The translations under genes and the position numbers were made by a program. Below, one piece after another: positions 124 through 8,574 of a stretch of DNA of 9,024 nucleotides. A model generated the notes under the pieces. It searched no databases. It was not told where the DNA came from and saw only the letters and a program-made list of their open reading frames with translations. Source of the stretch: a virus; the UHGV virus genome UHGV-0305646. One strand, given 5' to 3'. The stretch's first letter is position 1. Every line of letters begins with the position of its first letter.

Positions 124-141
124 GGACTCGTTATGTTGAAA
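109..141. other. dif-like attachment site (attL): XerC-type arm, 11-nt spacer, degenerate XerD-type arm
   Basis: GGTGCGCATAA (109-119) equals the XerC arm of the canonical dif at 8560-8570; spacer TGTAGGACTCG (120-130); TTATGTTGAAA (131-141) matches the dif XerD arm TTATGTTAAAT at 9 of 11 positions. Confidence 0.6.
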
Positions 142-180
142 AGGCCGCTGCGAAAATCGAATCCCGCAGCGGCCTCTTTA
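142..180 (-). terminator. GC-rich hairpin, candidate intrinsic terminator for the minus-strand module (or attP-associated structure)
   Basis: Perfect inverted repeat AGGCCGCTGCG (142-152) / CGCAGCGGCCT (165-175) with a 12-nt loop. On the minus strand it is followed by TTTTC and lies about 45 nt downstream of the stop at 218-220. The T-run is short, so terminator function is uncertain. Confidence 0.35.
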
Positions 181-217
181 GCATAACGTCATTGTGCGAA
201 CCAAAATCTTTTAGATT

Positions 218-409
218 TTATTTTCCGCAAGCAGGGCAGACGTTTGCATCACCAAATTGCATTGTAGTGCTTTTATTCACACTAAAACTTTCGAATCCTT
301 CACGTAAGGATTTTTTTTCACCATTAAAAAGATATGTTGTAAATTCTTTTTTCTCCGCATCAGTCAATTGAAGCCAGAGAGCTTTGACTTGATCTACTTT
401 ATAACTCAT
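218..409 (-). CDS. Hypothetical 63-aa protein ending in CPACGK, translationally coupled to the upstream 2-TM gene
   Basis: Track ORF 218-451; I prefer the internal ATG at 407-409 because it is preceded by a strong SD (AAGGAG, 6-nt spacing) and starts just after the stop of the upstream gene (421-423). No family recognised. Confidence 0.45.
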   Translation of the reverse strand: MSYKVDQVKALWLQLTDAEKKEFTTYLFNGEKKSLREGFESFSVNKSTTMQFGDANVCPACGK

Positions 410-420
410 TTGTTTCTCCT

Positions 421-996
421 TTATTTCACGAGATTGCCACAATTTGTGCAACCTTTCCGCTTGTTAAATTTAGTCGGTATTTTATTGCAACGTACGCATT
501 CTTTATTTTTCTTTACCAGAATGTCGAACATAATCCGTTTCTTATCATTATTGCTAACATATTTTTCATCTTCCTTGGCATTGAAGTCATCTTTTGATTT
601 TATCACTGAAAACAAATGGTTAGCGGGTTGCTGGTTGCCTGTCTTTGATTTAAACATGCTCGACAGTTCGCCATACAAATCAGTTAGGAGTTTATTGAAA
701 GAGTATGATTCCAGATATCGAGATAAATTTTCATCAGTCTTCATGACCAGTGTGTATAAATTAGAAAGCAAGACTATCACTGATAATATCCCTGTGCCCC
801 AAACTAAAAAATCAAAATATTTGGAGCTGTGATCAACCGATGCGTATCCTCCAACTAGGACAGGGAGGGCAAATGATAGATATTGGTTTATTTTTAAAAG
901 TCGTTCGCTTTTTTTGATTTTAGTTTTTAAGTAGTCAGCTGTTCCCTCTGCGTAAAATTTCCTGAGGTCCATTTCTTCATTCGGTTGCATACTCAT
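421..996 (-). CDS. Hypothetical membrane protein: two predicted TM helices followed by a ~100-aa tail with a CxxC-x12-CxxC zinc-ribbon motif
   Basis: Track ORF 421-1002 (193 aa, GTG start); the ATG at 994-996 has an AAGG SD 5 nt upstream. Hydrophobic segments INQYLSFALPVLVGGYASV and FLVWGTGILSVIVLLSNLYTLV; C-terminal CVRCNKIPTKFNKRKGCTNCG. No family recognised. Confidence 0.55.
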   Translation of the reverse strand: MSMQPNEEMDLRKFYAEGTADYLKTKIKKSERLLKINQYLSFALPVLVGGYASVDHSSKYFDFLVWGTGILSVIVLLSNLYTLVMKTDENLSRYLESYSFNKLLTDLYGELSSMFKSKTGNQQPANHLFSVIKSKDDFNAKEDEKYVSNNDKKRIMFDILVKKNKECVRCNKIPTKFNKRKGCTNCGNLVK

Positions 997-1068
997 CTTC
1001 ACCTTTCACAATATCAAACTAGCGCGGGCTGAAATTATAAAAAACCTGTAAATTCAAGTGATTGACAT

Positions 1069-1491
1069 TCACCAATAATATGAATTCCTTCTGTGCCACC
1101 AATAAAGCAGACCGTATCCGACGATAAGAATCCCGAAGAACATCAGAGACATTCCCCAGCCAGTTCCATACCACGAAACCATATCATCGAAAACCAGCCC
1201 ACCCGTTTCACGAACTCCGGCAGCTTCCTTAAGAATTGGCTTGAATACCGGAATCAGAAGGGCGATCGCCAGTGGAGCACCCCAGCGAATAAGGCCAGTT
1301 TCCATTTTGATCCCGAAAAAGATCCCCGCACCGACAACAAGCAGCCAGACTATCAGGCCAGGCGCAGTTTCCAGTGCTGTTTGCCATTCAACATCGAAAG
1401 TTTTCATTAGCCAGGCAACAACTGCCAGACAGAAAGCAAATACGCCTACAACAACCAGTTCAACGCCGCTTGTTTCGTTATTTCTACTCAT
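1069..1491 (-). CDS. Hypothetical polytopic inner-membrane protein (about 4 TM helices, 141 aa)
   Basis: Track ORF 1069-1638 (189 aa) overlaps the 60-aa gene; the internal ATG at 1489-1491 (MSRNNETSGVELVVVGVFAFCLAVVAW...) has an AAAGGA SD upstream and removes the overlap. Four hydrophobic stretches of about 20 aa. The 1638 start remains possible. Confidence 0.5.
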   Translation of the reverse strand: MSRNNETSGVELVVVGVFAFCLAVVAWLMKTFDVEWQTALETAPGLIVWLLVVGAGIFFGIKMETGLIRWGAPLAIALLIPVFKPILKEAAGVRETGGLVFDDMVSWYGTGWGMSLMFFGILIVGYGLLYWWHRRNSYYW

Positions 1492-1534
1492 CCTTTTGAT
1501 CCTTTGTTGCTGTTCAAAATCCGCACAATAAAGA

Positions 1535-7792: not shown

Positions 7793-7836
7793 TGGATAGC
7801 GGGTAGGTGCGTGAGCCCTGCTCGCTATCCATCAAA
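7788..7836 (+). terminator. Long hairpin overlapping the gene IV stop: candidate terminator and/or packaging-signal hairpin
   Basis: TTTGATGGATAGCG (7788-7801) pairs perfectly with CGCTATCCATCAAA (7823-7836); the 21-nt loop is partly self-complementary. No T-run follows. In Ff the packaging-signal hairpin sits directly after gene IV. Confidence 0.4.
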
Positions 7837-7861
7837 TGGACATTATTGATTGGGGTAACTA

Positions 7862-8170
7862 ATGGATTCTTATGGGATTTTATCTGCTCTGGCAGAACGA
7901 ACGATTACAGCGGAAGAAGCAAAAACAATGACACTTGCAGCCAGAAGTTCTTCGGCTCAGGTAAATGAAGCATCACTTGCTCTGTTACTGATTGATAATA
8001 CTCTGGATGCGATCAAAGCAGCTGCCAGTGAAGGGAAAGGATACACTTTACTTCCTTCTTATGAGATTTCTGTAAAAGCCATTGATTTAGCAGAAGAATT
8101 TTTAAGGAAACAATGCGGCTATGTTATTGATAACCAGAATGGCGTAAGGACGGTCTATTGGTTTATATGA
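7862..8170 (+). CDS. Hypothetical 102-aa protein
   Basis: Complete ORF with a weak SD; sits between two long hairpins in the gene IV to dif interval. No family recognised. Confidence 0.4.
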   Translation: MDSYGILSALAERTITAEEAKTMTLAARSSSAQVNEASLALLLIDNTLDAIKAAASEGKGYTLLPSYEISVKAIDLAEEFLRKQCGYVIDNQNGVRTVYWFI

Positions 8171-8171
8171 T

Positions 8172-8216
8172 AACCCCGGACAATGACAAAACTTGCTTTT
8201 GTTAGTGTCAGGGGTT
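8172..8216. other. Long imperfect hairpin (20-bp stem, 5-nt loop); candidate ssDNA origin or packaging structure, or a terminator
   Basis: AACCCCGGACAATGACAAAA (8172-8191), loop CTTGC, TTTTGTTAGTGTCAGGGGTT (8197-8216) with 2 mismatches and 1 G-T pair. A T7 run follows at about 8237-8243. Confidence 0.35.
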
Positions 8217-8287
8217 GGCCAAGCCGAACAATTCTGTTTTTTTAGCGTTATTGCTGATTCGGCGCGGCAGCATTACGAGGAGATAAA

Positions 8288-8521
8288 ATGCAATTTTTCA
8301 CATCCAGCGATACTGTAATGTTATGTGCGAAGACCTGCGATCGCTGTGGTCGCCATGCGAAGACGGTGGTAGATGACATTGAGTTCAATGAGTTTCTGTC
8401 TGTTAATCACTTAGCTGGATACGGTTCAATTTTTGGTGACAGTAATCGCTTAAAACTGGATTTATGCCAACATTGCCTGAAAGACGTCCTGGGCCAGTGG
8501 ATTACGGTCTGTGACCAATGA
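8288..8521 (+). CDS. Hypothetical small Cys-rich protein (77 aa, CxxC...CxxC)
   Basis: Complete ORF with a strong SD (GAGGAG at 8277-8282, 5-nt spacing); CDRCG and CQHC motifs. Its last 70 bp plus the downstream sequence are duplicated at 1-123. Confidence 0.6.
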   Translation: MQFFTSSDTVMLCAKTCDRCGRHAKTVVDDIEFNEFLSVNHLAGYGSIFGDSNRLKLDLCQHCLKDVLGQWITVCDQ

Positions 8522-8574
8522 CGGCACCGGTAACGCCAGTTCCCGCCATCCTTACCATTGGTGCGCATAATGTA
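8452..8574. repeat. Right copy of the 123-bp perfect direct repeat (left copy 1-123)
   Basis: See the left copy; identity ends at 8574 inside the dif central region. Confidence 0.9.

Follow-up and report, generated by a model that had tools for sequence, protein, structure and literature searches.

We analyzed a stretch of DNA of 9,024 nucleotides (nt), the virus genome UHGV-0305646, which is called the window below. Positions 124–8574 of the window are one complete unit of a filamentous phage (inovirus), 8,451 bp long, which lies at the dif site of Escherichia coli. The unit carries the full set of Ff genes in the Ff order, all on the plus strand: II/X, V, VII, IX, VIII, III, VI, I and IV, followed by a packaging hairpin. 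Each of its eleven phage genes is intact. Most genes were called with Pfam, pIX and pX were identified by tblastn with the I2-2 and IKe proteins, and the packaging hairpin was found by comparison with I2-2 and IKe. The Pfam matches are to G2P, G5P, G7P, Gp8, G3P pilus-binding and Coat_A, DUF5455 in the place of pVI, Zot and secretin. An earlier sequence-only reading had described an Ff-like prophage at dif, with Ff-related structural genes in the Ff order, without an integrase and with lysogeny dependent on the host recombinases XerC and XerD. The Pfam and tblastn results bear out the gene order from II/X to IV on the plus strand. The features of the window are collected in Table 1.

The prophage unit and its junctions with dif

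The limits of the unit are set by a perfect direct repeat of 123 nt, in which positions 1–123 are the same as positions 8452–8574. The repeat ends within the central region of dif, after ...GGTGCGCATAATGTA. Past the repeat, the left junction reads on as GGACTCGTTATGTTGAAA, and the right junction reads on as TATTATGTTAAAT. Because the repeat stops inside the dif central region, positions 124–8574 are exactly one unit of 8,451 bp. At the right end, the XerC arm of the intact dif comes from the phage side, and the central region and the XerD arm come from the host. At the left end, a dif-like site is present. Thus, the location of the element at dif, as the sequence-only reading had it, is borne out by an exact dif on the right, a dif-like site on the left and a repeat that bounds one unit.

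We considered whether positions 1–108 could be host DNA. This assignment was rejected, as the MG1655 sequence to the left of dif is unrelated. Bases 1–70 are the final codons and the stop of the open reading frame (ORF) h2 of a preceding phage copy. Strains MB51 and UM146, apparently single-copy lysogens, align to the window only from about positions 101–106 onward and not over 1–100. In strain C10, two head-to-tail copies are annotated, and the junction between them is the same as in the window. The mismatch with MG1655, the limits of the match with MB51 and UM146, and the tandem of C10 together indicate that the window opens within the tandem copy that precedes the unit. For the left dif-like site, a better description is the attachment site attP of the phage, regenerated at the tandem junction.

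Among the 16 scanned ORFs of the unit, no match to recombinase or transposase families was found in Pfam, NCBIfam, PADLOC and PHROGs; no ORF was scanned against all four of these libraries, and pIX was left out of the scans. For the libraries used with each ORF, the absence of an integrase from the unit holds. Given the dif location and the lack of a recombinase of its own, XerCD-dependent lysogeny is the only reasonable reading. An integrase-like ORF that starts at 8731 sits beyond dif, and it is part of a separate island lacking in other lysogens of this phage.

This island is a distinct mobile element. It begins 2 nt past the XerD arm of dif and occupies positions 8588–9024, where the window reads CACCTACTGT and MG1655 reads CATGTCTGAG. 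Its first gene, the ORF from 8731, encodes a site-specific integrase and runs off the window. The MB51 version of the island contains two adjacent tyrosine recombinases, an ORF of 788 amino acids (aa) and helix-turn-helix (HTH) genes in about 10–13 kb. The first 116 nt of the island are also present on large E. coli plasmids.

Table 1. Coordinates of the features in the window, with the matches on which each assignment is based
Feature	Position	Strand	Evidence or comment
3' end of preceding tandem prophage copy	1–108	+	identical to 8452–8559; cut by window edge
attP region, two inverted dif-like sites	107–204	+	predicted hairpin on viral (+) strand
attP1	109–141	+	XerC arm GGTGCGCATAA (109–119), 11-nt spacer TGTAGGACTCG (120–130), XerD-like arm TTATGTTGAAA (131–141)
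attP2	176–202	-	XerC-like arm GGTTCGCACAA (202–192), 5-nt spacer TGACG, XerD-like arm TTATGCTAAAG (186–176); paired with attP1 in the predicted fold
Cargo ORF, 63 aa	218–409	-	no Pfam, NCBIfam, PADLOC or PHROG match
Cargo ORF, 191 aa, 'mobilome CxxCx(11)CxxC protein'	421–996	-	TIGR04402, E = 1e-41
Semi-conserved accessory gene, 140-aa hydrophobic, probably membrane protein	1069–1491	-	phrog_4174
Conserved 47-nt element with 9-bp hairpin (ACGTGCAGT...ACTGCACGT)	1533–1579	+	85% identical to I2-2 (locus L085) 2666–2712, intergenic
60-aa ORF divergent from gene II	1580–1762	-	phrog_2503
Putative divergent control region	1763–1931	.	three GAACTCA motifs and one GAACTAC variant
Gene II, rolling-circle initiator, 350 aa	1932–2984	+	Phage_CRI, E = 9e-70; G2P_X_C, E = 2e-29
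Gene X, in-frame start inside gene II	2670	+	pX 47% identical to I2-2 pX; Shine-Dalgarno upstream of 2670
Gene V, single-stranded DNA-binding protein	2996–3313	+	PF17426, E = 8e-51; 39% identical to I2-2 pV
Gene VII	3316–3402	+	PF19978; pVII 70% identical to IKe and I2-2; no M13 or If1 match
Gene IX	3402–3497	+	53–57% identical to I2-2/IKe pIX; TAATG stop/start overlap with gene VII
Gene VIII, major coat	3517–3759	+	PF19199
Gene III, attachment protein, six GGGES repeats	3806–5083	+	PF21443 and PF05357
Gene VI	5083–5424	+	DUF5455
Gene I, Zot-type assembly ATPase	5425–6519	+	PF05707, E = 6e-41
Gene IV, the phage's own secretin	6527–7792	+	Secretin, N0 and Secretin_N domains
Hairpin after gene IV, packaging (morphogenetic) signal and terminator	7788–7836	+	inverted repeat
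ORF 'h1', 102 aa, UPΦ-specific	7862–8170	+	phrog_4115; position as h1 of PMC7307601
ORF 'h2', 77 aa, two CxxC motifs, UPΦ-specific	8288–8521	+	phrog_5435
attR, intact chromosomal dif	8560–8587	+	exact 28-nt E. coli dif, same as MG1655 dif; 0 chance matches expected

The phage belongs to the UPΦ group

We compared the window proteins with those of IKe, I2-2, If1, M13, CTXΦ and VGJΦ. The proteins pVII, pVIII, pIII, pVI, pI and pIV are 50–73% identical to those of IKe/I2-2 and, where matched, 31–55% identical to those of M13/If1. Using tblastn against whole genomes, we obtained identities to IKe, I2-2, M13 and If1, respectively, of 60%, 56%, 48% and 44% for pVIII; 51%, 52%, 35% and 31% for pVI; 65%, 65%, 54% and 55% for pI; and 71%, 73%, 50% and 48% for pIV. 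A search of the whole phage collection with pI gave 66% for IKe, 63% for I2-2, 55% for If1 and 53% for fd/M13, with IKe, the Erwinia PEar phages and I2-2 at the top ranks. At the DNA level, a 190-nt stretch of gene IV is 80% identical to IKe and to the Erwinia PEar phages. This was the only megablast match among 50,697 phage records, none of which belongs to the phage group itself. The hairpin after gene IV is similar to the annotated morphogenetic signals of I2-2 (95% over 21 nt) and IKe (91% over 22 nt). Residues 20–128 and 130–195 of pIII match the structures 4eo0 and 4eo1 of the Protein Data Bank (PDB), named 'Attachment protein G3P', with E of about 1e-25. The search output named no phage; we take these structures to be the N2 (pilus-binding) and N1 (TolA-binding) domains of IKe. 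Classical Ff-group phages infect by way of a conjugative pilus and TolA. No window protein had a tblastn match in CTXΦ or VGJΦ at E <= 1e-3. Thus, the proposed kinship of the structural and assembly genes with Ff holds, and it can be stated more precisely as an IKe/I2-2-type kinship.

The replication module has a narrower affinity. Among the classical phages compared, pII, pX and pV resemble I2-2 alone. The pII protein is 56% identical to that of I2-2 and only 22–23% identical to those of M13 and IKe; pX (47%), pV (39%) and the 47-nt intergenic element are also shared with I2-2. The likeness to the classical phages, closest for IKe and I2-2 (Lineavirus) and then for M13/fd/f1 (Inovirus) and If1 (Infulavirus), covers the homologous gene set and its order, the phage's own pIV secretin, the homologous packaging hairpin after gene IV and the IKe-type order of the G3P domains. 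The classical phages, originally described as strictly episomal and without an attachment site, differ in that they are episomal and lack h1, h2 and the cargo genes, whereas the window element is integrated and carries attP. The group is to be placed in the Inoviridae as Lineavirus-like, and on the identities given above IKe and I2-2 are its nearest classical relatives.

Filamentous phages with these properties have been described. UPΦ901 from a urinary E. coli isolate, whose nearest non-integrating relatives are I2-2 and IKe, is integrated at dif as a tandem repeat (Shapiro & Putonti 2020, Virus Evolution, PMC7307601). The UPΦ viruses have core genes I–X in the Ff order, with about 70% aa identity to IKe/I2-2 over the covered genes, and in their tandems the full dif is not repeated between the copies (PMC7307601). 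In UPΦ901, two novel genes, h1 and h2, follow gene IV, where IKe, I2-2 and M13 are intergenic; reverse ORFs, two of them variable, adjoin dif; and g3p has GGGES repeats (PMC7307601). The window agrees with this in gene content and order, in its I2-2/Ypf-like genes II and V, in two ORFs after gene IV, reverse ORFs beside dif, GGGES repeats and the tandem state at dif, and its identity to IKe/I2-2 is about 50–73%. The ORFs h1 and h2 of the window were matched to those of UPΦ901 by position, not by sequence. By tblastn they have no homologue in IKe, I2-2, M13, If1, CTXΦ or VGJΦ. We also located the UPΦ901 primers in the window. They converge in gene III, 470 bp apart: the forward primer lies at 4386–4405 on the minus strand with 0 mismatches, and the reverse primer lies at 3936–3955 on the plus strand with 2 mismatches, with a chance expectation of 0. 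Thus, the gene order and closeness to IKe/I2-2, the two ORFs after gene IV, the tandem at dif and the primer sites were all looked for and found. The unit of UPΦ901 is 7,560 bp, as opposed to 8,451 bp in the window. The window unit is longer because its variable slot holds the CxxCx(11)CxxC 'mobilome' protein and the 63-aa ORF.

In every feature checked, the element matches the UPΦ viruses, and on this evidence it is a UPΦ virus, a phage already known and published in 2020. Dif-integrated lysogeny of an Ff-type phage is likewise not new, as it was described in the same work (PMC7307601). The sequence-only reading named structural genes closer to a known group of integrating inoviruses than to Ff-type phages as evidence against it. 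Formally, this is the case, as the window is a UPΦ virus; the biological statement stands, as UPΦ itself is IKe/I2-2-like.

We also weighed the identity of the element with CUS-1/YpfΦ, the dif prophage of extraintestinal pathogenic E. coli (ExPEC) and Yersinia pestis. The dif location made it the favoured candidate at the start (PMC4266046). The two share the host group, a dif adjoining hipA, the tandem habit, a similar size (8.45 and 8.7 kb) and a variable cargo next to attL (PMC4266046). YpfΦ integrates at dif and has an imperfect dif between its tandem copies, and its dependence on Xer has been proposed, not demonstrated (PMC4266046). To the likeness belong also the intact dif restored on the 3' side, the imperfect dif at the copy junctions and the cargo slot in the same place. 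As a stand-in, we used the dif prophage of E. coli A4; its architecture is that described for CUS-1/YpfΦ, and on this ground we take it to be of the CUS/Ypf type. It turned out that the A4 prophage shares with the window the attP hairpin (99%), the 140-aa ORF (98.6% aa), pII (87%) and pV (93%). The morphogenesis genes of A4 are unrelated to those of the window, and the sole match is pIV at 27%. Only the stretches 1071–1590 and 1933–3320 and the attP region of the window align with the A4 prophage, and there was no nucleotide identity of about 99% over a 7.1-kb core, as would be expected within CUS-1Φ/YpfΦ. Divergent from gene II, CUS-1Φ/YpfΦ has an HTH protein of 148 aa, whereas the window has the 60-aa ORF. 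The comparison of UPΦ901 with YpfΦ of strain CO92 shows the same pattern, with only genes II and V in common (>85%) (PMC7307601); in the window, this sharing (>85% aa) was found with the A4 prophage. Thus, for the morphogenesis module, the identity with CUS-1/YpfΦ is ruled out, and for the element as a whole we consider it extremely improbable.

The UPΦ viruses have been found in more than 200 genomes of E. coli, Salmonella, Klebsiella, Citrobacter and Yersinia enterocolitica (PMC7307601). We found the 7-kb core of the window (1560–8574) in 57 of 5,426 complete E. coli genomes; the median copy number in these is 2. In 47 of these 57 genomes, the DNA identity of the core is 98.5–99.8%. The exact proteins of the window each occur on up to 1,000 or more contigs, with E. 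coli, Salmonella, Klebsiella and Citrobacter among the named hosts; the same four genera make up the host range that the window shares with the UPΦ viruses. A second, more distant lineage was observed in several E. coli genomes (hits H133–H139), which have about 84–86% DNA identity over genes II to IV. They include avian pathogenic E. coli (APEC) O78:H4 as well as mink, bat and red panda isolates.

Several related loci deserve mention in their own right. In E. coli EC5502 (NZ_CP092647.1, 30001–60000; locus L101), 16–17 places match the window in a long head-to-tail array by hipA with many frameshifted genes. Either the tandem array is very large, or replicative-form reads gave rise to an artefact in the assembly. 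In the RefSeq record of UM146 (NC_017632.1; locus L002), positions 5700–6008 to the left of the prophage are full of N, exactly where the host flank and the phage tail would differ, which suggests a collapsed assembly of the tandem junction and the true host junction. In Rosenbergiella gaditana (locus L005), dif-like sites lie at 1097, 2140, 4805 and 12340, four within 11 kb; at least two more elements are apparently stacked upstream of its UPΦ-like prophage, whose pI is 88% identical to that of the window. In Izhakiella australiensis (locus L004), a contig of 8,271 bp with 336x coverage holds the whole phage (pI 94% identical), and its ends overlap by ATAATGT inside attP. A circular replicative form would fit this, as would a collapsed tandem array. 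Three loci (L007, L013 and L006) labelled as a Candidatus Nanosynbacter metagenome-assembled genome (MAG), Actinomadura and Paenibacillus hold enterobacterial or gammaproteobacterial Ff-like phage sequence. The first of them has E. coli flanks and a pI that is 100% identical. These labels are probably due to contamination or mis-binning.

The attachment site and the proposed route of integration

The attP region consists of two inverted dif-like sites with a GC-rich stem-loop of 34 nt between them. In attP1, the XerC arm agrees with dif perfectly, and the XerD-like arm agrees at 9 of 11 positions. Since every morphogenesis gene is on the plus strand of the window, this is the viral (+) strand. 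The predicted DNA fold of the attP region on this strand has an energy of -30.7 kcal/mol (z = -7.3), and none of 200 shuffled sequences folds as well. We then aligned eight versions of attP from related prophages of E. coli and Salmonella-type lysogens, Rosenbergiella, Xenorhabdus and Photorhabdus. In this alignment, 97.2% of the cells are paired, and compensatory changes are found in 12 of 36 pairs; slid controls were paired at 29–44%. The same plan of arm, bubble, arm and stem, built with unrelated stems, is also present in more distant Ff-like prophages of Xenorhabdus and Marinobacter, and in two loci (L013 and L075) whose taxon labels we distrust. By the same scan, no inverted dif-like pair was found in IKe, I2-2, If1 or M13.

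The closest model for such a site is CTXΦ. The central region of its attP1 is 12 bp and that of attP2 is 5–7 bp, neither works as a duplex, and the folded (+) strand is the substrate of XerCD (PMC4246890). The window element likewise has two inverted dif-like sites, able in silico to fold on the (+) strand and located between the last accessory gene and the reverse ORFs, with one over-long spacer and one short. With spacers of 11 and 5 nt, attP1 and attP2 probably lack a usable central region as duplexes. Also as in CTXΦ, there is no integrase, the copies form tandem arrays, and the right end regains a functional dif. The differences are that protein homology is not detectable, that the sites are about 90 bp apart in CTXΦ and 34 nt apart in the window, and that the window phage has its own secretin and no toxin genes. 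By these features, attP is a CTXΦ-style pair of inverted dif-like sites, and the strong covariation of its hairpin suggests that integration is single-stranded and driven by XerC. The identity of the left and right junctions ends after TGTA at 123, where the crossover zone is expected beside the XerC arm, and the phage (+) strand is collinear with the top strand of dif, as a XerC-first exchange needs. Thus, the junctions agree with a XerC-first exchange on the top strand of dif.

We consider it highly probable that the window holds a UPΦ-group phage as one full copy of 8,451 bp plus the tail end of another, arranged head-to-tail at E. coli dif, and that the phage borrows XerC/XerD of the host and uses a folded attP of the CTXΦ type. 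By this route, the packaged (+) strand would fold into a hairpin that presents the XerC and XerD arms with an asymmetric bubble (11 nt over 5 nt) between them. XerC would cut after GGTGCGCATAA and swap one strand with dif, aided by the shared TGTA. Replication would then resolve the junction and leave a phage-type site on the left and a perfect dif on the right. Because a perfect dif would be rebuilt at the right, further copies could integrate and build arrays. Excision should be rare, since the duplex attP sites would offer no usable central region. New (+) strands would be produced by pII-driven rolling-circle replication that continues from a tandem copy into its neighbour. Their packaging would use the hairpin that follows gene IV, and they would leave the cell through pI/pIV. 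The single-strand substrate, the exchange by XerC only, its irreversibility, the rolling-circle route and the position of the origin are the parts of this scheme that we infer.

The main rival is integration of the VGJΦ type, in which the double-stranded replicative form would recombine with dif via attP1 alone, XerC first, in a reversible way that allows excision. The same junctions are expected in this case, as the identity would also end after TGTA beside the XerC arm. The arms of attP1, one perfect and the other nearly so, would serve it as well, and a phage copy of dif is all that Shapiro & Putonti mention (PMC7307601). However, VGJΦ-type phages have a single duplex attP site of about 29 bp (PMC4246890) with a central region of normal length, whereas the arms of attP1 are 11 bp apart instead of the 6 bp of dif, and both the inverted second site and the covarying hairpin are kept across genera. 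[quoted passage not shown] Moreover, tandem arrays are the rule in the E. coli genomes with the core. We therefore think the VGJΦ-type route unlikely and prefer the folded, CTXΦ-type site.

Some points weigh against the folded-site scheme and the assignment to the UPΦ group. The covariation set is small: it has eight sequences, one of which also supplied the structure. The distal GC-rich stem with its T runs could be a mere bidirectional terminator, and the covariation of the Xer arms could mirror the tracking of host dif instead of intrastrand pairing. The link to UPΦ901, CUS-1 and YpfΦ comes from primers, described features and one E. coli prophage of the described architecture, not from direct alignment. 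The element is known here from sequence alone, and the window is cut at base 1. In the published work, new infections with UPΦ901 were not obtained, and the site was called just 'a copy of the dif site' (PMC7307601). This failure to infect would also fit a decayed prophage remnant that is fixed at dif and unable to make virions, as would the insertion sequences (IS) or frameshifts in gene II or gene III of some lysogens; the source strain of the window, too, is known only as sequence. We consider such decay improbable for the window element. Its phage genes are all intact, and DNase-protected UPΦ901 DNA was detected in culture supernatants of four lysogens (PMC7307601). In addition, the near-identical cores across many lineages and the same proteins in several genera argue for recent horizontal spread and thus against a remnant.

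Accessory genes and the meaning of the element

The pair of cargo genes beside attP is the sole feature of this copy that is unusual for E. coli. The cargo DNA (190–1070) was found in 1 of 5,426 complete E. coli genomes, that of strain C10, with 100% identity. Elsewhere, the cargo proteins occur on roughly 500–1,000 contigs, with Salmonella, E. coli, Klebsiella and Citrobacter among those named; the exact 63-aa protein is on about 970 contigs, and its named copies include Salmonella, E. coli and Klebsiella. The exact match of the 191-aa sequence is named 'SLATT domain-containing protein' in UniRef. Pfam yields only sub-threshold hints for this CxxC protein, and the pair has no match in PHROG or PADLOC. 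In our own reading of its sequence, the 191-aa CxxCx(11)CxxC/SLATT-like protein has two predicted membrane helices. In other lysogens, the same slot holds Fic/Doc-type, ECs_2282 zinc-binding and other small ORFs. PADLOC detected no known defence families in the six accessory ORFs. The next accessory gene, which encodes the 140-aa protein, is 98.6% identical in the E. coli A4 prophage and 88% identical in Izhakiella and Rosenbergiella.

The remaining small elements lie next to gene II. In a similarity search for the (+) origin, the window was compared with the intergenic regions of I2-2, IKe and If1, and only the packaging hairpin, the 47-nt element and a small reverse ORF turned out to be common. 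The 47-nt element may be an origin, nick or recognition site for a pII of the I2-2 type. Judging by its position only, the 60-aa ORF is a candidate regulator; its exact protein sequence appears in 15,986 collection blocks. Unannotated reverse-strand homologues of this ORF are present in the 'intergenic' regions of If1 (58%; locus L086, 5143–5301, minus strand) and I2-2 (43%; locus L085, 2799–2903, minus strand), and there is a weak one in IKe too. The If1 and I2-2 homologues fit a published proposal by which integrating ancestors gave rise to the episomal phages. A consensus scan gave fewer promoter-like sites than shuffled sequence and no more terminator-like sites, and it is uninformative on regulation.

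These observations can be joined in one tentative proposal of three parts, which taken together we regard as possible but somewhat less than probable. First, the attP hairpin, the cargo slot, the 140-aa ORF and genes II and V may form one exchangeable 'lysogeny and replication cassette' that moves between unrelated morphogenesis backbones, the IKe-like one of UPΦ and that of the A4 type. Second, the CTX-style folded single-strand site may be used by Ff-like prophages of Xenorhabdus, Photorhabdus and Marinobacter, and IKe, I2-2 and If1 may be deletion derivatives that keep the small reverse ORF and the origin element. Third, the cargo may be a module for host benefit or exclusion. In the literature examined, we did not find these ideas stated in this form.

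For specialists in inoviruses and Xer recombination, the value of the window is incremental. Textbooks state that Ff-type coliphages never integrate, which is incomplete; this point was already printed in 2020, and the window finds it again. The window gives a clean single-unit view of the tandem junction. It also shows a slot next to attP in which small cargo genes (Fic/Doc-type, zinc-binding, CxxC 'mobilome') are exchanged between two phage backbones. If UPΦ does have a folded site of the CTXΦ type, phage production would need tandem copies, and single-copy lysogens would be silent.

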